A DNA stretch of 10,946 bases from a virus: the UHGV virus genome UHGV-0116491. One strand, given 5' to 3'. Position numbers and translations under genes: made by a program. Shown piece by piece: positions 1 through 9,409 of the stretch. Below the pieces are notes generated by a model. The model was not told the origin of the DNA. It made no database searches and saw only the letters and a list, made by a program, of their open reading frames with translations. The first letter of the stretch is position 1, and the number at the start of each line of letters is the position of its first letter.

Positions 1-14
1 GCTTAAGAATGAGA

Positions 15-20
15 TATAAT
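15..20 (+). promoter_or_regulatory. Possible -10 hexamer (TATAAT) for the 50..586 gene; a -35 would lie outside the window
   Basis: Exact TATAAT at 15-20, about 30 nt upstream of the ATG at 50; no -35 visible. Confidence 0.2.
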
Positions 21-49
21 GCGACTTTTAGTGTTCCGCTTGAGAGGCC

Positions 50-586
50 ATGATGCTTACCTTGGACGAGATAGGTCAATCAGTACGTAACAATATCCAG
101 TTGATTATTGATCATGTCGGCTTACCTCTTGCTGTTGGTCCGCTCAGTGATGATGATTACAAGATTCTGTGTGGTGGCTATGGTGAGCTTGAATGGGACT
201 ATGCGTTAAGTACCTATGGCAACTCCAGAGAAAAGTATGAGTTCTGCATAAAACTTGTTCAGCAAGGTCGGGTTCAGGGAATACCATCAGGAGCAGCAAT
301 TTGTGTTTATGGGGTTGAAGAAAACATCTTTCGTATCCATATGATCGAAAGGTTTTCTAGAGAAGATGAATCTCACCCATTGAAAGGGCGCATGGTTTTA
401 CTCACTCTTATGAGTGCTTTTATATTTTGTAAAGCTGTTGAATGTAAAGTTGTCCACATTGTAGAGCCAGTACCAGAACTGGTGCAGTATTACGAGTCTT
501 TTGGTTTCCGCATGGAACAGTGCGGTTATGTGATGTCGGCAGTCATTGATGAGCTGCAGGATATCTTTCTTAAATTTGCTCAGTAG
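50..586 (+). CDS. Hypothetical protein, possibly GNAT-family acetyltransferase-like (178 aa)
   Basis: ATG ATG start with GAGAGG 4-7 nt upstream; C-terminal LVQYYESFGF resembles GNAT motif B and HPLKGRMVLL a degenerate motif A. Fold assignment is by motif resemblance only. Confidence 0.55.
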   Translation: MMLTLDEIGQSVRNNIQLIIDHVGLPLAVGPLSDDDYKILCGGYGELEWDYALSTYGNSREKYEFCIKLVQQGRVQGIPSGAAICVYGVEENIFRIHMIERFSREDESHPLKGRMVLLTLMSAFIFCKAVECKVVHIVEPVPELVQYYESFGFRMEQCGYVMSAVIDELQDIFLKFAQ

Positions 587-691
587 GTATAGACGAGAAG
601 GGTCTACAAATTGTAGGATACCCGTCCAGATTACCTTAAAGGTACATCTATGGCAGTCGTTTTGTGCTTAAACTACTAAGAAACGATGTCA

Positions 692-712
692 CCAATCGAC
701 ATGATCGATTGG
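692..712. promoter_or_regulatory. Perfect 8-bp inverted repeat CCAATCGA-N5-TCGATTGG, candidate protein-binding site
   Basis: CCAATCGA at 692-699 and its reverse complement TCGATTGG at 705-712, about 70 bp upstream of the small gene at 783. Confidence 0.3.
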
Positions 713-782
713 CATAAGTTAGCGAAACAAGCTAGCTTTAAAGAAAGGGTTAGAGACGCCTTTACTGTCTCGGGAGTTTTCT

Positions 783-956
783 ATGAAAGATCAAAAAGCA
801 ACCAAGCCACAGGTTAAGTTCGACACAATGAAAGCATTCGCAGGTATGGGTGCTGCTGTTGAAGTTCTGATGAAGGCTGCTCCTAATGCGTTCACTCACG
901 CTACTGTCTCTGGTAAAGAGCAGCAGGGTAAGCTTCGTCGTCGCAAAGCAGCATGA
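783..956 (+). CDS. Small basic Lys/Ala-rich protein (57 aa), function unknown
   Basis: ATG at 783 with GGGAG (772-776) 6 nt upstream; stop TGA 954-956 followed at once by an intrinsic terminator. Below the ORF-track length threshold, so not listed there. Confidence 0.55.
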   Translation: MKDQKATKPQVKFDTMKAFAGMGAAVEVLMKAAPNAFTHATVSGKEQQGKLRRRKAA

Positions 957-974
957 TCATAGCTGGTGCTTTTT

Positions 975-1001
975 GAAAACCCGCCTGAAGGCGGGTTTTT
1001 T
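975..1001. terminator. Bidirectional rho-independent terminator for the converging + and - transcripts
   Basis: Stem CCCGCC (980-985), loop TGAA, stem GGCGGG (990-995), flanked by an A-run upstream and T6 downstream. It sits between the stop of the 783..956 gene and the stop of the minus-strand gene at 1004. Confidence 0.8.
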
Positions 1002-1003
1002 CT

Positions 1004-1285
1004 TTAGTGATGTTCTTTGTCCTTCTGTTTGACTGTTCTGACCTGTTCCCACTCGATACGTCCTTCTTCTCGCCTTTTGTCTATGTATTCCGCAAGATCT
1101 TGAATATTGATGCAACGTTTTGCTTTTTGTGATGTGCCGATGCGATATGTTGGAACGGGCAACTTACAAGCGTTTGCTTTTGCTTCTGCCGTGGCTGGAC
1201 TCATACCAAAGTACTTTTGGCTAACTGCTGAGAGTTCAATGTTTGGGGTATTGAATTCAGCCATCAGTAAAAACAAGGTGTTCAT
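1004..1285 (-). CDS. PrtN-family / excisionase-like DNA-binding protein (93 aa)
   Basis: ATG at 1285 (MNTLFLLMAEF...) with GGAG 6 nt upstream; the track ORF starts at an upstream GTG (1312) that lacks an SD. C-terminal INIQDLAEYIDKRREEG matches my recollection of pyocin-activator PrtN-like proteins found next to prophage int/xis. Last gene of the leftward operon. Confidence 0.75.
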   Translation of the reverse strand: MNTLFLLMAEFNTPNIELSAVSQKYFGMSPATAEAKANACKLPVPTYRIGTSQKAKRCINIQDLAEYIDKRREEGRIEWEQVRTVKQKDKEHH

Positions 1286-1321
1286 AATTTTCTCCATCAA
1301 AACCGGCTGCACCCGGGAAAA

Positions 1322-1894
1322 TCATAATTCTGTGCTGGTGGCAGGAATTAATTTCTGCCAGATAGCGGAAACATATTTTGCCTGATGACGGGCATCAGCC
1401 AGGGCGTTGTGCCGTTCGCCATCGAAAGGCATGTCCATTTTGGGGTCGAATCCGATGGAACGCCCAAGCGTAACGATCGTGCGTACATCGTGGTCATTCC
1501 AGTACGCCCACGGGCAGATTTGTCCTGCTCGCTCGTAAGCTCCACGTAAAATTACGTTGTCGAAGGTGGCCCCGTTACCCCAGACTTTTAAATATTTCGT
1601 ATTGTCTGCGTGCCGGTTAATGAAATGGTTTAGTTCTGAGAGAGCATCGCTGATCGACAAAGTATCATCAATACAGATTGCAGCTCGCGCTTCAGGGCTT
1701 TGTTTCAACCACCACAGGATGGTATCGCCGTCAGGTGTAGCTCCTTGCTTCATAGCACTGTCTAGGCTGACAACCGCATAGAATTCTTGTCCGATGTCTC
1801 CGGTTTCTGGAGTGAAGAACACCGCGCCAATGGAAACGATCGGTGCATCCTTATTTTTCCCCATCGTCTCAAGGTCGATCATTAAGTTGTTCAT
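1322..1894 (-). CDS. DEDDh-type 3'-5' exonuclease (DnaQ-like), 190 aa
   Basis: Motif I MIDLETMG (D-x-E) and motif III HNALADARH (H-x4-D). ATG at 1894 with GGAGG 8 nt upstream; its start overlaps the stop of the upstream gene (TGATG). Confidence 0.85.
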   Translation of the reverse strand: MNNLMIDLETMGKNKDAPIVSIGAVFFTPETGDIGQEFYAVVSLDSAMKQGATPDGDTILWWLKQSPEARAAICIDDTLSISDALSELNHFINRHADNTKYLKVWGNGATFDNVILRGAYERAGQICPWAYWNDHDVRTIVTLGRSIGFDPKMDMPFDGERHNALADARHQAKYVSAIWQKLIPATSTEL

Positions 1895-2646
1895 CACTTC
1901 ACCTCCTGCGGCGGTTCCGGTAGCGGCATCCAGTGAGTTGCTTGCTCAATACCATTACCCGGCTTAATCGTTGCATCTCCGCGCCGAAAGGTGCTTCCGG
2001 TATAGCGTGCGGAGCATATTAGCGGTTCAACCAGAGAGCTATCGAAATTTATCGAAATAAGCACGTTCTGGCCCTTTTCAGGCATTCGATCACTACAGCT
2101 TATCCAACTATCCGGAGTTCCCGGAGAGTTGCCATTTACATCGAAGTTTGGCTCTGCGTCCTGAACCAGGAGGATGTAACCATTCTTGGCCGTATCAAGT
2201 TCTAACGCCTCGGTGACGGTGCCGAAATAGCGATTACCTAAATCAGCATCACAAGTGCTAACATCAATGGAAACTTCCATGCCTTCGATTAATTCTGGCA
2301 AGTTGTAAGTTTGGTTTACAGGTTGGCCTCCCTGAAGCATGGCGGCGCGGTGACACCAGATAATCCAGCCAAGCGCCATATCCCATGCCATGTATTCTCT
2401 ATCACCATTTTTTGCCCTGCGGCGATCTACAGATTCCCCGAAACGCTTCTCCATAAATAATTCATAGGCTGCCCGTTCATCTGATACTGCTGCCAGCGAT
2501 GCCAGTGCAATTTTAAATGCGGTAAGTATGTTGTTAACCACACCTATTTCGAATGCTATTTCACTACATACAAACGATTTATCGTCTATTATCGACTCAA
2601 TTCCGGTAATCGTGTTCTGTAACCATTCTTTGGTAATAGTATTCAT
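1894..2646 (-). CDS. DUF551-domain phage protein (250 aa)
   Basis: C-terminal HWMPLPEPP is typical of DUF551 as I recall it; ATG at 2646 with AGGTGA 7 nt upstream; good E. coli codon usage. Confidence 0.75.
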   Translation of the reverse strand: MNTITKEWLQNTITGIESIIDDKSFVCSEIAFEIGVVNNILTAFKIALASLAAVSDERAAYELFMEKRFGESVDRRRAKNGDREYMAWDMALGWIIWCHRAAMLQGGQPVNQTYNLPELIEGMEVSIDVSTCDADLGNRYFGTVTEALELDTAKNGYILLVQDAEPNFDVNGNSPGTPDSWISCSDRMPEKGQNVLISINFDSSLVEPLICSARYTGSTFRRGDATIKPGNGIEQATHWMPLPEPPQEVK

Positions 2647-2648
2647 AA

Positions 2649-2840
2649 CTATTTCACCTTAATCTCAACATTTCGCAGCTTTAGCTCTACTGGCAGGTCT
2701 GACTTTCCGGTTAATGCTAATGCGAGATTTTCTGGAGTAATGAGAGCAGTTATTGTTTTCCCCCTCGCCAGACGAATAATCATTCGTATCTCGCTATCGT
2801 CACATGCTCCAGGTCGAACAATTGATATTTGTCCGTTCAC
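2649..2840 (-). CDS. Small hypothetical protein (63 aa), GTG start
   Basis: GTG at 2840 preceded by GGGGAAG; lies 1 nt downstream of the Ea22-like stop (2842) and its stop overlaps the next gene's ATG (2644-2646). Confidence 0.5.
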   Translation of the reverse strand: MNGQISIVRPGACDDSEIRMIIRLARGKTITALITPENLALALTGKSDLPVELKLRNVEIKVK

Positions 2841-2841
2841 C

Positions 2842-3480
2842 TCACTTCCCCTTCACACCAATGTTAGCGGCGGCGCGCTCGGCTTCACTTTGTTCCCAAA
2901 ACCACTTGTGAAGCTCCATAAGCTTTTCGTCAATCGGTGCATATTTGCGATTAAAGTAGGCCTGAGCATCTTTCTCAGATTCGTCCGGCAATTCGCCTGG
3001 GCCAAACAGTGTGTTATAAATCCATGCCAGTCCGCTTTTAGCGTCGCCAGTTGCCTGCCATTCGATAATCGCAGCCTGCATGACCAGAATGTTTTTCCCG
3101 ATTAATAGGTCCAGTTCTTTGAACCGGTTGCGGATGTATGCATTCTCGCTTTGTAATTTTGCGTTGCGCTTCTCTGCGGCTTCCAGCTTAACGCGCAGCT
3201 TCCCAACCGTTAGCGCAATATCCTCGTTCTCCTGGTCACGGCGTTTGATGTATTGCTGGTTTCTTTCCCGTTCATCCAGCAACGCCAGCACGGTTTCTGG
3301 TCCGGCCAGAAATTTGAAGGCGTTGAGCGCATCAATATCCACACCGTAATCTTTAAGTTCCTGTTCACTTATCAGATCATCATCAACTGGCAACATTAAC
3401 AGGCGTTCCATTGCCGGAATTGCACGTTCTGCCGCCTCACGCAGCGCCAGTGTGTCGATGTCGATGTCGATGTTGCTCAT
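2842..3480 (-). CDS. Ea22-like (ead/Ea22 family) early protein, 212 aa
   Basis: Starts MSNIDIDIDTLALREAAE...; acidic, coiled-coil-like composition typical of Ea22-like proteins. The ATG at 3480 overlaps the upstream stop as ATGA, so the track's upstream start (3504) is probably not used. Confidence 0.7.
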   Translation of the reverse strand: MSNIDIDIDTLALREAAERAIPAMERLLMLPVDDDLISEQELKDYGVDIDALNAFKFLAGPETVLALLDERERNQQYIKRRDQENEDIALTVGKLRVKLEAAEKRNAKLQSENAYIRNRFKELDLLIGKNILVMQAAIIEWQATGDAKSGLAWIYNTLFGPGELPDESEKDAQAYFNRKYAPIDEKLMELHKWFWEQSEAERAAANIGVKGK

Positions 3481-3710
3481 TGTGCCTCCTCGATTTCGTC
3501 CCATTCCACCCAGGCATTCTCTCCATCAGCATCGATTTCACCTTTGTGACCGCATTTGGAACAAACGGCCTCATCACCCGCCCACAAAGAATCTTTGGTT
3601 ACCGACCATCCTGTTACCTTGGCTTTGCCGTGCTGGCACTTAGGGCAATCATCAAGCCATTCGACTTCGACCGTTGAAGGACCAAATCCATGTTCAGTTC
3701 GGATGCTCAT
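3477..3710 (-). CDS. Small zinc-ribbon protein (77 aa)
   Basis: Two CxxC pairs (CPKC ... CSKC); ATG at 3710 overlaps the upstream stop as ATGA. Confidence 0.65.
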   Translation of the reverse strand: MSIRTEHGFGPSTVEVEWLDDCPKCQHGKAKVTGWSVTKDSLWAGDEAVCSKCGHKGEIDADGENAWVEWDEIEEAQ

Positions 3711-4051
3711 GACTGAACTCCTTTGCGAATCTGTTCCGCCCATTCTTCAAGGGATTTCTCCGCATATTCACCGGACAAGCCATCAATCGGGTGCGGTTCA
3801 TTAGCCAACTCTTCTTTCGCTGACAGAACCATGCGCGTAACGTCGAAAACTTCACGCAAAGGCTTATTGATAAATCCGTGATTGAAAGCAGCAGCAAGAC
3901 GGCTTGCGGTATAGTTAATACCCTCGTTGCGAGCCTCAGCACGTACTTCATCGAATTTACGCACCAGATACTCAGCATTTGTTTCATTCACTTTCAGATC
4001 TCGCGGTACACATTTCCCGCGAAGAAACCCTTCCATTTCGAAAACATTCAT
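3707..4051 (-). CDS. Hypothetical phage early protein (114 aa)
   Basis: ATG at 4051 overlaps the upstream stop (4048-4050) as ATGA; no recognisable motif. Confidence 0.6.
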   Translation of the reverse strand: MNVFEMEGFLRGKCVPRDLKVNETNAEYLVRKFDEVRAEARNEGINYTASRLAAAFNHGFINKPLREVFDVTRMVLSAKEELANEPHPIDGLSGEYAEKSLEEWAEQIRKGVQS

Positions 4052-4584
4052 GCGCATTTGCGTAACTCCGATAAATCGTTAAAACGTTCCATAAACATCC
4101 CGTAGGCATGACCCGGTGCCAGTGGAATCACGTTGAACATCTCTGTTGCCGGGATGCCTTCCAGTACAGGCCAGAAAGAGCCATCATCAAGCCCGAGATC
4201 GCGGCGTTCGGTTGCCAGCATGATGAGATCGGCATATTTCACGGGCGTGCTCATAGCCTGAGGTAACCCGTATTTCTCACGGATTACGGCGTCTATTTTT
4301 TCTTCCATCCGTTTATAGTCAGGAAGAAGGCGTTTCAGTGGTGCGGGGATGTCCTGGCAATACGCTTCTGTTGCATCATGCATTAACGCTTCAAAAGCAA
4401 ATTCCTGCGGCACCAGCTGGCTGCAAAGCACCGCATGCTGGGCGACACTGTAGAAGTGTGAAAGATGTCCTGCAAAGCGACAGATATTTGAAAGGGAAAC
4501 TGCGATATCGTTAATCACGATGTCGTCTTTATTTATCTTGTCATAATAAAAATGCTTCCCGGAAAAAGTTTTAATAAATGACAT
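4048..4584 (-). CDS. yfdR: HD-domain phosphohydrolase, YfdR-like (178 aa)
   Basis: His...HD motif (GHLSHFYSVAQH ... LMHDATEAY). ATG at 4584 with GGAG about 6 nt upstream; the track's longer ORF begins at a TTG without an SD. Length and context match my recollection of CPS-53 YfdR; not verified. Confidence 0.8.
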   Translation of the reverse strand: MSFIKTFSGKHFYYDKINKDDIVINDIAVSLSNICRFAGHLSHFYSVAQHAVLCSQLVPQEFAFEALMHDATEAYCQDIPAPLKRLLPDYKRMEEKIDAVIREKYGLPQAMSTPVKYADLIMLATERRDLGLDDGSFWPVLEGIPATEMFNVIPLAPGHAYGMFMERFNDLSELRKCA

Positions 4585-4677
4585 TTTGTTCTCCACGTAT
4601 ATGCGCTGCACCGCGCTGAATTCGGGTAAAAGGAAGCCCTCGCTATCAGGCGATTGTTGAGTCAATTACGTTTCCAT

Positions 4678-4699
4678 AAATGCCCCCGCAGGGGCATTT
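4678..4699 (-). other. Perfect 9-bp GC-rich hairpin between the yfdQ-like and yfdR-like genes
   Basis: AAATGCCCC-CGCA-GGGGCATTT; the flanking T-tract is only 3 nt, so this is more likely a processing or stability hairpin, or a weak attenuator, than a full terminator. Confidence 0.4.
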
Positions 4700-4711
4700 G
4701 CAGCAATGAAA

Positions 4712-5536
4712 TCAGGCGGTGAAAGTACCAATAAAGGTTTCTACTTTGCTGTCTTTGAATTTCTCAACAAGCAGATCACGAAATTCGTTAGCCATTTCTT
4801 CCTGCATCGCTTCCAGCTGAATAATGCGCAGAACCAGTACAGGACGATCGCCAGTGATAATGCTGAGGCGTAATTTAAACGGACGTTCTTTCAGGCCTTC
4901 AAACGGAACGCATTTAAATTCAAATGCCACTGGCATAATGTCTTTGGTCTTCGCTTCGACAGACTCCATCAGGGAGCGTTTGCCGCTGAAGTCATTGTCT
5001 TCAAAATCAGCGGTCTGGTTTGCTTCAATTGTGATTTTACGGACTGCCGCAGCCGCTTTGGTTGCCTGAATGGTGTCACCATTAGCATCAAAGCCCACAA
5101 GGTAGTCGGCCCAGTCTTCAATCCATTCTGCCAGTGACTTCTGGGAGTTACGCTCGCCATTAACAGACAACAGAGCAGAAAACGGTGCTGTCTTTTTCAG
5201 TTTGAGGGTGGCGGTGTTATCTGCGTGACCTGGTTCATCAATAGTACCCAGGTTAAGCACACTGACGGCTCGCATATTATCGGCATCGATAAAGCAGCGG
5301 GTGCCTTCATCTGCAAGATCTTTAGAATAACGGGTAAAGTCATCGATGCTGGCAGTGGAAAGCGCACCACGGAAACGGAAGCGATTTAAATTAAATTTTT
5401 CCAGATCATGAATGCGGAAATGCTCAGGCAATGCCACAGCATCGGCACCAATCTTACTGATAATTTCATTAACACCCTGAGCAGAAATAAGGGCATGGAT
5501 TTGATTAATTGCGGTTGCGTCTAAGTTCTGAGACAT
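4712..5536 (-). CDS. yfdQ: YfdQ-like protein (DUF2303 family as recalled), 274 aa
   Basis: ATG at 5536 with GAGGA upstream; length and position next to the HD-domain gene match CPS-53 YfdQ from memory; not verified. Confidence 0.75.
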
Positions 5537-5601
5537 AATAAGTCCTCACTATATAAAGATATTCAGTGATGAGATAAATAATCAGTTAATTAAGAACGAT
5601 A

Positions 5602-5964
5602 TTAATGACCTGCTGCGCGGAGTTTTCCGTCAGGTTCACCGGCAAGAGTCAGTAATTGTCCCTGGTCTTCCTGCAGAATAGTCAGGCGACCACCGCGATT
5701 GACATACATCGGCGTTTCGGTGGTGTCTTCTTCGGAAATTTTCCCGCGGTTAGTCGGGCGAACATATGAGAGTTTGTGTTTTATTTTCACACGGTTCTCA
5801 TCAAACGGTTCGATTTCCAGGTTGAGCGAGACCTTACCTTTGGTTTTCGTGTTCATCACACCGGAAGCGACTTCACTGAGAACTGCGCCGATTTTGGTTT
5901 CAAATACGCCGCCGTCCAGCTCCCCGATAAATGCCTGCACATCAGTACTGCGTTCGCTAGCCAT
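5602..5964 (-). CDS. yfdP: YfdP-like hypothetical protein (120 aa), first gene of the early-left operon
   Basis: ATG at 5964 (MASERSTDVQAFIGELDGG...) with GAGGAG 8 nt upstream. The track's 197-aa version begins at an upstream start with no SD and runs through the large inverted repeat. Confidence 0.7.
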   Translation of the reverse strand: MASERSTDVQAFIGELDGGVFETKIGAVLSEVASGVMNTKTKGKVSLNLEIEPFDENRVKIKHKLSYVRPTNRGKISEEDTTETPMYVNRGGRLTILQEDQGQLLTLAGEPDGKLRAAGH

Positions 5965-6012
5965 TTTGCTGCTCCTCATCATATCGACCCTGCAAGGTCG
6001 GTTGGTTTCTCC

Positions 6013-6101
6013 ACAAAACAGAGAAGAACACCTGCGGTGGCAGCCGCCCGGATGGATTGGGTTATGAGCCCGTCGTCCGGTGATGCTCTTCTCTGTTTTG
6101 T
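6013..6101 (-). repeat. 15-bp perfect inverted repeat enclosing a 59-nt loop, forming a large hairpin just upstream of the yfdP-like RBS
   Basis: ACAAAACAGAGAAGA (6013-6027) and its exact reverse complement TCTTCTCTGTTTTGT (6087-6101). Possible RNase III or translational-control element. Confidence 0.6.
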
Positions 6102-6147
6102 AAAAAGAGCGGTACCAGCCGGAAGCAAGTGTACAAACTGGTACCGC
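6101..6147 (-). terminator. Intrinsic terminator inside the early-left leader (tL1-like)
   Basis: On the minus strand: 10-bp perfect stem (GCGGTACCAG / CTGGTACCGC; plus 6138-6147 and 6109-6118) with a 19-nt loop, followed by UCUUUUUA. Confidence 0.5.
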
Positions 6148-6564
6148 CAACGCAGTGGCTGTTGTGGTGGGGTTGTCACTTAGGCGTATGGTCAACCTGA
6201 CAATCCGGTGTCCTCAACGGGGAAAGAGTAACCCCGCCATACTTACCGCCGCGCCATTTCGCGGATTACCACAACGCTGAGAGCACTTAGCCAGTTACGG
6301 CACCACACTTTGTCGCGGTTCCATAAATGCCCTCATCGTTGCACCCTGGTCTCTTCCCAGGCGTCAAACCGAATCGCCACGCTGGTTAGGCGTCTTATCA
6401 GCATCCTCATTGACTTGCACATTCCGGCTACCTGGTTTGTTTGCCCGAGCAAGGAGTGGATTGTCCCCTTTAACGTCCCCAGACCGCTAACGACGCATGT
6501 GCCATACGCCGTGTTACAACCAAATTTTGTTAGTACCTTGTTTGTAGGTCTGGAGAGAAAGATA

Positions 6565-6615
6565 AAATGAAGTTGCGCATTATGCAAGTATTTTATTGCG
6601 AGATATGCAATTTGG
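6565..6615 (-). promoter_or_regulatory. OL operator pair and putative leftward early promoter (pL)
   Basis: Two 15-mers of the form TTGCG-N6-GCAA (6573-6587 TTGCGCATTATGCAA; 6596-6610 TTGCGAGATATGCAA) spaced 23 bp apart; the same form recurs at OR. TTGCAT and CATAAT-like hexamers lie on the minus strand, but exact -35/-10 spacing is unresolved. Confidence 0.5.
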
Positions 6616-6623
6616 TGGGTAAT

Positions 6624-6644
6624 GAAAAGCCACCTTCTGGTGGC
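6624..6644 (-). terminator. Intrinsic terminator downstream of the repressor gene
   Basis: On the minus strand: GCCACC-AGAA-GGTGGC followed by UUUUC, 22 nt after the repressor stop. Confidence 0.6.
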
Positions 6645-6666
6645 TAATTGATGTTGAGGTAGGGGG

Positions 6667-7359
6667 TTAATTGTGTCGCTTAAGGGTCTGTGACTGACTG
6701 ATTAAGACCTTTCCAAAGACCATAAACCGGTGTTCGTTTTCGCTGGTAATTCCCCATTCGCGGTAAATCTGATTATCAGAAATTACCAGCAGTTTATCAG
6801 GTATCATTTGCAGTCGTTTGACGTAAATTTTATCATCAAAACCAAATACATATATACCATCCCCATCAAACTGATTGATACTGATATCAACGAAGATGAG
6901 ATCTCCTGGCTCAATGGTTGGACACATACTGTCCCCACGAACGTTGATAACTTTAATGTGATTTGCTGGTCGTCCACCAAACATCGATACAGCATTATCA
7001 GTTCTGTATTCAATGGCATGAATCACATCAATGACATCACCGCCCTGGATAAGGCCATTTCCCGCACTGGCACTGACATCCAGCATTTCAATACGGAATA
7101 CATCCTTCACCTGCGCAACATCCTCACTAATACTGTTTTTACATACAGTATTACTTTTGAGGTCTGAGGTAAAGAGATCAGCAATATCAACACCTAAGCT
7201 CCTGGCAATATTACTCAGGGCTTGTTCAGTGAATTGTTTCTGCTTACCTGTTTCGAGGCGCGAGATATTCGCCGCATCCACTCCTATTGCTTCAGCGAGA
7301 TCGGCGATTTTCATGTTCTTCGCCTGGCGAAGTTGTCTGACTCGATTTCCTATGTTCAT
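6667..7359 (-). CDS. cI: CI-type prophage repressor: N-terminal XRE-family HTH plus C-terminal S24 (LexA-like) autopeptidase, 230 aa
   Basis: HTH region IADLAEAIGVDAANISRLETG; Ala-Gly cleavage site (SASAGNG); GDSM serine motif and downstream KRL lysine; divergent from a Cro-like gene. Confidence 0.9.
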   Translation of the reverse strand: MNIGNRVRQLRQAKNMKIADLAEAIGVDAANISRLETGKQKQFTEQALSNIARSLGVDIADLFTSDLKSNTVCKNSISEDVAQVKDVFRIEMLDVSASAGNGLIQGGDVIDVIHAIEYRTDNAVSMFGGRPANHIKVINVRGDSMCPTIEPGDLIFVDISINQFDGDGIYVFGFDDKIYVKRLQMIPDKLLVISDNQIYREWGITSENEHRFMVFGKVLISQSQTLKRHN

Positions 7360-7456
7360 GCGTTTATTACATTTCTTTATTGCGCGTTAAGCAAATCAAC
7401 TTGCGCAAAATATTTGCGTGAAATAATATGCTCATCACGCAATATGTGGAGGTTAT
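7360..7456. promoter_or_regulatory. OR region with divergent pRM (leftward) and pR (rightward) and operator-like repeats
   Basis: pR candidate: TTGCGC (7401-7406), 17 bp, TAATAT (7424-7429). pRM candidate on minus: TTGCTT (7394-7389), 17 bp, TGTAAT (7371-7366), ending 6 nt before the cI ATG with no SD. Operator-like TTGCGCGTTAAGCAA (7380-7394) and near-palindrome CGCAAAATATTTGCG (7404-7418). Confidence 0.55.
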
Positions 7457-7717: not shown

Positions 7718-8261
7718 GCATCATTGGAAAGTGGAAAAACAACCCGAGTGGTACGTGAAAGCTGTCAGAAAAACTATCGCGGCATTGCCTAGGGGTTACG
7801 CTGAAGCTGCTGACTGGCTGGATGTAACAGAGAACGCTTTATTCAACCGCCTTCGTGCAGATGGCGATCAGATTTTCCCGCTGGGATGGGCAATGGTTTT
7901 ACAGCGCGCGGCTGGCACTCACTACATTGCGGATGCTGTCGCACAGTCTGCTGGTGGGGTGTTCGTATCGCTTCCTGAAATTGAGGAAGTAGAGAACGCC
8001 GATATAAACCAGCGCCTGCTGGAAGTCATCGAACAGATCGGGAATTACTCAAAGCAGATTCGTTCGGCAATCGAAGATGGGGTCGTGGAGCCACACGAGC
8101 AGACAGCAATTAATGATGAGTTGTATCTGTCAATTTCGAAGCTCCAGGAGCATGCAGCACTGGTCTACAAAATCTTCTGCGCTCCAGAAAAGAGTGACGC
8201 CCGCGAGTGTGCAGCTCCGGGCGTCGTGGCGTTTTGTGTCTGTGGAGAAACTAACGCATGA
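7710..8261 (+). CDS. CII-like phage regulatory protein (YdaT/CP76-like), 183 aa, GTG start
   Basis: GTG at 7710 with GGAGG 6 nt upstream, overlapping the Cro-like stop; position (third gene of the rightward operon) and size match CII/YdaT-type proteins; family assignment from memory. Confidence 0.65.
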   Translation: MGKHHWKVEKQPEWYVKAVRKTIAALPRGYAEAADWLDVTENALFNRLRADGDQIFPLGWAMVLQRAAGTHYIADAVAQSAGGVFVSLPEIEEVENADINQRLLEVIEQIGNYSKQIRSAIEDGVVEPHEQTAINDELYLSISKLQEHAALVYKIFCAPEKSDARECAAPGVVAFCVCGETNA

Positions 8262-8862
8262 ACAGTTTAACGGCAAATAACCGTTTGTCGCAACAGCTGG
8301 TGGTCAGTGTCGCTGAACACCTGTTGTTACGGCATGAATGCAGATTACCAAATCACTTGGCTGTAAGTAACCACAGAGAACTTTACCTGACTGTGGGGGG
8401 CGAGTTGTGCAGGAACTTAACCGCTGGTTTCGTGACGGAAGAGGGCTTTATGTCCATGTTATTCGTTGGGAGCCAGAAACACAGCGCGTTATCTATCTTC
8501 GCAAAGACTACCCGCATGAGTGCTTTAGTCCTTTGTGGAAATTCAGGCGTGATTTTGTTGAGTGTGAAGGACCACCAGCACATTGATTCTGCCATTCCGG
8601 GACGTTACACTGTTCAGGCACCTTATAAAGCGGGTGCCGGGCGTGGAAACCCGGAATTCACCAAAGCGCACAACCGCGCTCTTGCGGTTTTTTTGTGTAA
8701 TGAGCAGCATTACGCCCAAATTATGGTGGGGCGTGCAGGGCCAACTTCGGTTGGGCCGGGTTCTTTGGTGACCGGTATTTCCACCCCTGTACGTCTCACC
8801 ACCAATAAGGTCGTGGAAAGCCTTGGTGGTGAGTTATTAAAAATCACCAAAGAGGCTGCCAT
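8258..8862 (+). CDS. Unresolved ORF that overlaps the CII-like stop (ATGA) and runs in-frame into the Rha gene with no stop; either an N-terminal extension (full ORF 8258..9409, 383 aa) or a frameshifted / dual-coding segment
   Basis: ATG at 8258 with GGAG 10 nt upstream. Codon usage in 8585-8862 is strongly coding-like (all five Arg codons are CGT/CGC; ACC x6, GGT x5). No recognisable domain. Confidence 0.35.
8407..8586 (+). CDS. Alternative -1 frame ORF (59 aa, GTG start) inside the unresolved segment
   Basis: GTG at 8407, 6 nt after a G6 run; product VQELNRWFRDGRGLYVHVIRWEPETQRVIYLRKDYPHECFSPLWKFRRDFVECEGPPAH is protein-like, with 6 of 8 Arg codons CGT/CGC. Just under the ORF-track length threshold. 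Confidence 0.3.
   Translation: MQELNRWFRDGRGLYVHVIRWEPETQRVIYLRKDYPHECFSPLWKFRRDFVECEGPPAH
8672..8694 (+). terminator. Terminator-like hairpin plus T-tract inside the unresolved segment; contains a boxA-like CGCTCTT
   Basis: AACCGC-GCTCTT-GCGGTT followed by T5 (T7 in total); CGCTCTT at 8677-8683. Lies inside a frame that looks coding, so it may be coincidental. Confidence 0.3.
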
Positions 8863-8863
8863 C

Positions 8864-9409
8864 ATGGCTACGATCCCAACCCTCACTCAACCTGAAATTG
8901 CCATCGTTGATGGTCAGGCTGTTACTTCATCCTTGGCTGTTGCCAACTTCTTCTCCAAACGTCATGACGATGTACTGAAAAAGATCCGCACGCTTGAATG
9001 CTCTGCATCATTCACTTCCCGCAATTTTTCGGTGAGTGATTACACCGATTGCACAGGCCGCAAACTACCTTGCTATCAAATAACCCGCGACGGCTTTGCG
9101 TTTCTTGCTATGGGTTTCACGGGTAAACGTGCTGCCCAGTTCAAAGAGGCATACATCAATGCCTTTAACCAGATGGAGAAACAGCTTTCAAATCCCTCTG
9201 TACTGAGCGACGTTGCACATAACGCCAGCGTTCTCTATTCCTACATTTCATCAATTCATCAGGTCTGGCTGCAGCAGCTTTATCCTATGTTGGCAAAAGC
9301 CGAATCTCCGCTGGCTGTTAGCTTGTATGACTATATTAATGATGCTTCGGCGCTGGCCTGCCTCATAAATTTGTCGCTGAATCCTTCAGAGGTAAGGGGG
9401 CGCAAATGA
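8864..9409 (+). CDS. rha: Rha-family phage regulatory protein (181 aa)
   Basis: ATG at 8864 with AGAGG 8 nt upstream; N-terminal region (FFSKRHDDVLKKIRTLECSASFTSRNFSVSDYTDCTGRKLPCYQITRDGFAFLAMGFTGKRAAQFKEAYINAFNQME) matches the Rha domain pattern as I recall it, in its usual N-terminal position. Confidence 0.7.
   Translation: MATIPTLTQPEIAIVDGQAVTSSLAVANFFSKRHDDVLKKIRTLECSASFTSRNFSVSDYTDCTGRKLPCYQITRDGFAFLAMGFTGKRAAQFKEAYINAFNQMEKQLSNPSVLSDVAHNASVLYSYISSIHQVWLQQLYPMLAKAESPLAVSLYDYINDASALACLINLSLNPSEVRGRK

Follow-up and report, generated by a model that had tools for sequence, protein, structure and literature searches.

The inverted repeat at 6013–6101 of a DNA stretch from the virus genome UHGV-0116491 is the basal helix of a conserved, non-coding three-way-junction RNA, located in the leader of the early-left (PL) transcript of SfV/ST64B/mEp460-type lambdoid prophages. 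This structured regulatory RNA of the lambdoid early leader is not in Rfam, and we found no description of it in the literature. Its most likely role, which we propose tentatively on the basis of computational analysis, is that of an RNase III processing, stability or translation element. The window, that is, the whole stretch of DNA analyzed, comprises 10,946 nt, and the element is read from its minus strand.

Genomic setting of the element

The window comes from a lambdoid E. coli prophage of the SfV/mEp460/CPS-53-like kind and covers its immunity and early region. The gene of the cI-like repressor (7359–6667, minus strand) is followed by its terminator, found by a scan (6645–6628, minus strand). 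Just downstream lie the putative PL promoter and operator repeats (6570–6612, minus strand), with −35 and −10 boxes inferred from the sequence. The operator-like repeat at 6592–6610 recurs at 7376–7394, beside the cro-like gene. The first early-left gene of this prophage is yfdP (5964–5602, minus strand, 120 aa), which was assigned from the RefSeq annotation of near-identical loci and a phrog_204 match; together with its RBS, GAGGAG at 5977–5972, it occupies 5602–5977. The approximately 600 nt between PL and yfdP contain no RefSeq gene, and the hairpin lies at the 3' end of this leader. The fold of the whole 616-nt leader had a z score of −5.9.

Two side observations concern gene calls. The E. 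coli variant has a pair of in-frame ATGs (AUGAUGAGGAGCAGCAAAAUG; 5965–5982, minus strand) that overlaps the RBS, six codons ahead of the annotated yfdP start; this upstream ATG pair was picked by a simple start-finder in 19 variants. Elsewhere in the window, Rfam matches were obtained on the plus strand for the isrK Hfq-binding RNA (8618–8694, 67 bits) and the C4 antisense RNA (8719–8806, 83.6 bits). Both fall inside the CDS of a 383-aa 'Rha family phage regulatory protein' (RefSeq equivalent 8258–9409). Either these RNAs are embedded in the gene or the long ORF is partly over-called.

The inverted repeat and the fold of the leader RNA

The initial annotation reported a perfect 15-bp inverted repeat with a separation of 59 nt, beyond chance expectation. 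The sequence agreed exactly: ACAAAACAGAGAAGA is found at 6013–6027, and its exact reverse complement, 59 nt apart, at 6087–6101. The pair ranks first among the inverted repeats of the window, with an imperfect extension to 25 nt per arm. The number of perfect 15-bp local inverted repeats expected by chance in 11 kb is about 0.001 (approximately 1.1 × 10^6 position pairs within 100 nt, times 4^−15). Folding of 6005–6125 yielded −53.3 kcal/mol for the minus strand (z = −6.0), a value matched by none of 200 shuffled sequences, and −51.1 kcal/mol for the plus strand (z = −4.7). These values confirm that the match exceeds chance.

The perfect 15-bp run is present, but it is only part of the stem. 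In the minimum-free-energy fold of the minus-strand RNA, helix P1 consists of 25 pairs, i.e. 20 bp and five U–A/U–G pairs at the base. P1 is lengthened at the top by GCAUC/GGUGU and at the base by UUUUU/GGAGA, through G–U pairs absent from the other strand. Its 5' strand, UUUUU-ACAAAACAGAGAAGA-GCAUC (6082–6106, minus strand), holds the arm at 6087–6101, and its 3' strand, GGUGU-UCUUCUCUGUUUUGU-GGAGA (6008–6032, minus strand), holds the arm at 6013–6027; both were delimited by the fold and by pair counts (alignment A3, below). The 'loop' of the initial annotation proved to be a three-way junction, closed by P1, with two additional helices, P2 (6080–6048) and P3 (6047–6034). P2, on the evidence of fold and pair counts, is composed of CCGGA/UCCGG, GA/UC and GGG/CCC helices with 1 × 2 internal loops. 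P3 is a short helix (GCGG-CUGCCA-CCGC, from pair counts), the length and loop of which vary in the homologues.

P1 leads into a near-invariant single-stranded tail (6001–6012, minus strand), which reads GGAGAAACCAAC here and GGAGAAACUAAC in most homologues. In alignments A2 and A3, the tail (GGAGAAACYAAC, or more generally GGAGAAAC(C/U)AAC) was almost invariant. The first five tail bases are able to pair with the U-run that precedes P1; the tail persists in a locus (L132) which has no U-run. Between the tail and the RBS stands the small hairpin P4 (CGACCU-UGCA-GGGUCG, 5985–6000, minus strand). Its stems vary yet remain complementary, and most variants have GGCA, UGCA or GUGCAG as the loop. A UUGCAG loop, as on P4, was seen again on many P3 helices. 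The gap between the arm and GAGGAG, previously given as about 25 nt, measured 35 nt. The tail and P4 had been omitted from the initial annotation, as had the branched top with its tRNA-like loop and the terminator-like hairpin that abuts P1.

Conservation, covariation and distribution

Variants were gathered from YfdP relatives (one genome per species) and by a conserved-string search of viral contigs. This gave 115 distinct element variants from Enterobacterales prophages. The source labels include Escherichia, Shigella, Mangrovibacter, Enterobacter, Atlantibacter, Leclercia, Superficieibacter, Phytobacter, Kosakonia, Scandinavium and Pseudocitrobacter; the same element is carried by a contig labeled Chryseobacterium (L021), a label that may be a contaminant. 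A divergent version occurs in two Providencia loci.

The main pair counts were derived from a MAFFT alignment of 45 sequences (A3). Standard pairs were found in 93.8% of the cells, and this value fell to 40–58% once the partners were slid. Both sides had changed at 13 of the 39 pairs, and the observed covariation score was reached by none of 500 shuffles; alignment A2 agreed with this result. All three helices contributed: 94.3% of the cells were paired in P1 (six pairs changed on both sides), 92.7% in P2 (four pairs) and 93.3% in P3 (three of four pairs). Conservation with compensatory change had been proposed as the check on the hairpin, and the arms are indeed conserved and co-varying in homologues from many genera.

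The conservation is unevenly distributed. P1 is free of indels in all aligned sequences, whereas insertions in P3 can reach about 30 nt. Pair 11 of the 20-bp P1 core is unpaired (C·U or C·C) in 40 of the 45 aligned sequences, and the uninterrupted 15 bp is therefore a feature of the E. coli clade. The upper part of the hairpin is far more conserved than lower P1, where mostly pairing alone is kept. Together with the junction, the tail and the P4 loop, upper P1 is nearly invariant.

We found the element in 2478 of 5426 complete E. coli genomes, mostly unannotated; a single genome may carry as many as five copies. Its carriers include Stx2a and Stx2c phages, the Shigella serotype-converting phages SfII, SfIV and SfV, and phages of Salmonella (ST64B), Klebsiella and Citrobacter. 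Searches with covariance model R1 returned exactly one copy each in mEp460, ST64B and the window, and no second copy was found in the PR operon of the window. K-12 is probably without the element, judging from the K-12-like junction loci (L004 and L012, both E. coli). These loci carry other sequence upstream of yfdP, which makes K-12 RNase III and transcriptome data sets probably uninformative. As a side observation, the leader and the immunity region are absent there, and iteron-like repeats (TGACGGGTCAGATTTTGA and similar) precede yfdP.

Strand, coding potential and rejected identities

With a covariance model built from A3, the minus strand reached 115.7 bits and the plus strand 35.5 bits. 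G–U pairs occur at five or more stem positions of the minus-strand RNA, and several positions are G–U in most sequences. Since these G–U pairs exist on the minus strand only and the scores are strand-asymmetric, the functional form is the early-left RNA and not a DNA palindrome. The same two observations disfavor the protein-binding dyad at the DNA level that had been offered as one possible role.

No frame was open in all 115 variants on either strand. Stops occur in all three frames in 21 of the 115 variants in the sense direction and in 17 in the antisense direction. The indels across the element are not multiples of three, and the open frame moves with them. The coding ORFs that cross the hairpin (the yfdP frame, open to 6195, a 66-aa ORF on the minus strand and a 135-aa ORF on the plus strand) were rejected, as they showed no conserved frame and the Pfam search was empty. 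The ORF at 5776–6183 (plus strand) matched PHROG 3651 (E = 4e-86), and the ORF at 5979–6179 (minus strand) matched PHROG 33599 (E = 5e-17). Both families are probably artefacts of the conserved RNA, or of nucleotide conservation. ORFs crossing the hairpin are annotated as hypothetical proteins in phage records, e.g. mEp460 gp36.

Known RNA identities were also considered. Rfam 15 gave no hit at the gathering score and none that was credible at E up to 10 for 5900–6700. A tRNA gene was rejected: ARAGORN found none in the window, and the match is confined to the anticodon stem-loop core. A boxA/nut reading of CGCUCUUUUUA was likewise discarded. The GCUC part is not conserved, and the sequence corresponds to the 3' side and U-run of the terminator-like hairpin. 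No N gene is annotated in the three genomes of this group that were checked, mEp460, SfV and ST64B. Homology to HK022 put was rejected as well, as model R1 had no match in the HK022 genome at E up to 10; the putL and putR sequences themselves were also inspected. Full-text literature searches, conserved sequence strings included, returned no published description of the element. A metagenome scan for the loop motif produced mostly chance 16-mers, from which only a few family members were gained; one match among 30 checked loci falls within a predicted tRNA-Met gene.

The terminator-like hairpin and neighboring genes

P1 abuts an intrinsic-terminator-like hairpin, read from the sequence (6102–6147, minus strand). 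Its 10-bp stem pairs 6147–6138 with 6118–6109 around a 19-nt loop and is followed by UC and U5 (6106–6102). The sequence thus has the GC-rich stem directly before a U-run that defines an intrinsic terminator. In 109 of 114 variants, a comparable GC-rich hairpin ends at most 3 nt from a run of four to eight T. These stems differ among homologues with complementarity kept. Locus L132 has another arrangement: about 25 nt, free of any terminator, separate the promoter and operators from the start of the element.

At its upstream edge, the conserved module carries a CACCACAAC motif (6161–6169, minus strand), which recurs upstream of the terminator in many loci. Several side observations relate to this motif. 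It stands about 40–50 nt upstream of the terminator and resembles the start of the P1 5' arm (ACACAAC). In SfV/ST64B-type leaders, a small hairpin, CCGGGAGGCACCCGG, precedes it. Homology to several mosaic phages stops at about 6169, so that CACCACAAC marks the edge of the shared module.

On the downstream side, the initial annotation had tied the hairpin to the yfdP-like gene. This link did not hold across the family. By-eye assignment showed a YfdP-like gene next to the element in many phages and, elsewhere, an RdgC-like protein (approximately 305–309 aa), a YfdR-like HD-domain protein or another product. Because the first downstream gene varies, the element belongs to the PL leader and not to yfdP. 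The distance from the element to the RBS is 30–50 nt, and that to the start codon shifts as P3 and P4 change in length and from one downstream gene to another. A simple scan of the early-left genes (1–5960, minus strand) detected only one weak, 5-pair terminator-like site, which implies that processive antitermination past the element is not obviously needed.

Domain A and the rest of the leader

Near the 5' end of the PL transcript, alignments A4 and A5 delimited a separate block of conserved, structured RNA, domain A (6344–6513, minus strand). Its invariant blocks are AUGGCACAUG, AGCGGUC, GGUAGCCGGAAUGUGCAAG, GGUGUGAC and GGAAGAG. Among the fetched loci, 125 distinct copies were counted, which fall into 47 sequence clusters. 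When 34 sequences were aligned, 93.7% of the cells were paired, eight pairs had changed on both sides, and none of 500 shuffles reached the covariation score. In several phages, domain A starts about 10–15 nt after promoter-like sequence. The hairpin follows within 1.5 kb downstream in only 11 of the 47 clusters, and ST64B has the hairpin with no domain A match. Domain A is therefore independent of the hairpin, as only 11 of the 47 clusters have both. It gave no match in Rfam, nor any nhmmer match in HK022. Its stem I resembles putL stem I, a likeness that may be due to chance. Domain A may be a put-like candidate and, as a candidate for an RNA that lets the PL polymerase pass the terminator, it is better placed than the hairpin.

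Three further observations were made in the upstream part of the leader. The stretch 6170–6343 (minus strand) is highly structured, with a long-range helix of GCAACGAUGAGGGCAUU with AGUGCUCUCAGCGUUG, the motifs of which recur in other loci. The cargo upstream of the terminator depends on the phage: domain A in the window, a tRNA-like gene in Phytobacter prophages and orf33 in SfV. In two Phytobacter ursingii prophages, a predicted tRNA-Ile with the unusual anticodon AAT lies directly before the terminator and the hairpin (L018, 2222–2300; L023, 1186–1264). This suggests that the part of the leader from PL to the terminator serves as a slot for RNA cargo.

The P2 tip and the initiator tRNA

The tip of P2, GGGCUCAUAACCC (6071–6059), folds as GGG-CUCAUAA-CCC and is identical at 13 of 13 nt to the anticodon stem-loop of the E. 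coli initiator tRNA. The identity spans three G–C pairs and the 7-nt loop with CAU; the tRNA sequence was confirmed in annotated tRNA-Met genes, of which there are about four per genome. At least 93 of the 115 variants have CAU in the P2 loop, and one of the two divergent Providencia versions (L028) retains UCAUA. Exceptional loops are CUCCUAA, CCUAUAA and CCCUAA. A CUCAUUC loop, in which positions 37–38 are altered, occurs in 22 of the 115 variants. The loop also fits the YUNR U-turn motif of antisense recognition loops. A search of the window for an RNA target complementary to the loop gave nothing above chance.

Discussion

Among the roles named in the initial annotation, we still favor an RNase III site of the lambda N leader kind over any other single mechanism. 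This tentative preference is due to P1, a near-perfect helix of 20–25 bp that matches the size accommodated by the enzyme. Near-perfect helices of this length are usually cut in vivo by RNase III. For the E. coli enzyme, a footprint of approximately 22 bp, scored over 11 + 2 + 11 positions, has been described (PMC6212723). P1, with its 20 bp plus five basal pairs, offers the required length of about two turns (approximately 22 bp), fixed in the 45 aligned sequences, 40 of which have the central mismatch. According to the proposed mechanism, transcripts that read through the terminator would fold P1. RNase III would then cut P1 and thereby detach the early-left mRNA from the leader or cargo RNA that precedes it. 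The detached upstream RNA would end near the terminator hairpin, and the mRNA would now start at the conserved tail, a short way ahead of P4 and the RBS. In this way, the cut may set how stable the message of the first early-left gene is or how well it is translated, as RNase III does in the lambda N leader. The zero spacing between P1 and the terminator fits this model, as read-through RNA cut in P1 would end almost where terminated RNA ends. The C·U or C·C mismatch in the middle of the helix could weaken or redirect the cleavage. The near-invariance of upper P1, the junction, the P2 loop and the tail is not explained by RNase III, because the enzyme has little sequence specificity. This implies that a second, specific partner is likely, and the mechanism would include such a partner for upper P1, the junction and the P2 loop.

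We weighed this processing role against several other explanations. As a put-like cis-acting RNA, the nascent three-way junction would bind the elongation complex, suppress pausing or termination in the early-left operon and thereby replace the missing N. The absence of an annotated N gene from mEp460, SfV and ST64B speaks for this role, as does the position of a conserved structured RNA early in the PL transcript, where in L132 it is the first thing transcribed. The invariant tail also appears to fit the G(−10)Y(−1)G(+1) pause consensus. A put-like RNA has been suggested by the Casjens laboratory as a possibility for LLS, in which the early-left operon most resembles those of ST64B and phiNP (PMC12315714). 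HK022 put consists of two irregular stems arranged in a V, 73 nt in all, and is found in both early operons upstream of terminators (PMC9378689). The element, in contrast, is built of one long helix and a junction, has no putL or putR similarity (model R1, HK022, E up to 10) and occurs as a single copy per phage, with none in the PR operon. Its sole clear terminator lies upstream and not downstream, the early-left and early-right genes are tightly packed, and a near-perfect 20–25-bp helix would likely be cut by RNase III. On balance, we regard a put-like function of the hairpin as unlikely. A DNA-level element (a palindromic protein site, a cruciform, or a recombination or module-boundary signal) is very improbable. 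The arms do form a perfect palindrome in E. coli, and the homology blocks of mosaic phages stop about 70 nt upstream, at about 6169. Nevertheless, the positions that are G–U on the minus strand become A·C mismatches on the other strand, the scores are strongly strand-asymmetric, and the compensatory changes, which extend to P2 and P3, preserve pairing and not sequence.

The remaining explanations center on the P2 loop. The element could be an operator at which a sequence-specific partner (a protein, the 30S subunit or another RNA) recognizes this loop and controls translation of the first early-left gene. The 13-nt identity with tRNA-fMet, three G–C pairs included, is consistent with such recognition, and so are the persistence of CAU and of UCAUA in Providencia, the near-invariance of upper P1, junction, tail and P4 loop, and the location 30–50 nt upstream of the RBS. 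Several findings make the operator doubtful all the same: the 'anticodon' is changed in a few variants, the distance to the start codon is variable, the window yielded no complementary target, and no candidate binding protein is encoded at a fixed position. Alternatively, RNase III might excise upper P1 together with P2 and P3 as a trans-acting small RNA of approximately 65–80 nt, e.g. a decoy for a factor that binds the initiator-tRNA arm. In its favor, conservation is much higher in this upper part than in lower P1, the early promoter PL is strong, and the anticodon-loop identity is exact; on the other side, this proposal is purely inferential, and positions 37–38 are altered in the 22 variants with CUCAUUC. 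We consider it quite unlikely. More speculative still, and of low probability, is that the branched top is a deliberate mimic of the initiator-tRNA anticodon arm, made abundantly from the strongest of the early phage promoters, possibly released by RNase III, and engaging a host component that reads this arm. The host component might be the 30S P site, IF3 or MetRS, or else a tRNA-fMet-cleaving nuclease such as the VapC toxins encoded on Shigella and Salmonella plasmids. If such mimicry were true, translation initiation would be biased or the abortive-infection response blunted.

To our knowledge, the control of the early operons in lambda-like phages without N has been resolved only for HK022. 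The element and domain A are concrete conserved RNAs on which N-less early control can be tested. The early-left genes include excision genes in mEp460, SfV and ST64B, and prophage induction would be affected if the element controls early-left expression. The results also bear on annotation: this very common element is either unannotated or hidden under 'hypothetical protein' calls, and two PHROG families are flagged as probable conserved-RNA artefacts.

Comparison with known systems

With the processing role as the preferred reading, the closest comparison is the lambda N leader, which is known to contain an RNase III hairpin. Both are large hairpins in the untranslated PL leader, with control elements on the upstream side and the first gene's RBS on the downstream side, and the helix of the element is likewise long enough for RNase III. 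The T7 early sites (e.g. R1.1) are characterized by internal loops, which the internal mismatch of most element variants recalls. The element differs from the lambda and T7 sites in several respects. It is unrelated to them in sequence and is accompanied by neither an N gene nor a conserved nut site; instead, the element has a conserved three-way junction with a tRNA-like loop and abuts an upstream terminator, and its cleavage by RNase III is putative. With HK022 put, a processive antiterminator RNA that works without accessory factors and depends on the beta' zinc-binding domain, it shares the setting, a lambdoid phage without N and a conserved structured RNA transcribed early from PL, but not the sequence and structure, the two-stem V shape or the copies in both operons that would assign it to put. 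The likeness to the initiator tRNA is limited to 13 contiguous nt: the next two stem pairs are mismatched here, and the element has no acceptor, D or T arms. In the thrS operator, a tRNA-like loop is located in the 5' leader of the mRNA, upstream of the RBS, and the tRNA-like loop of the element occupies the same kind of position.
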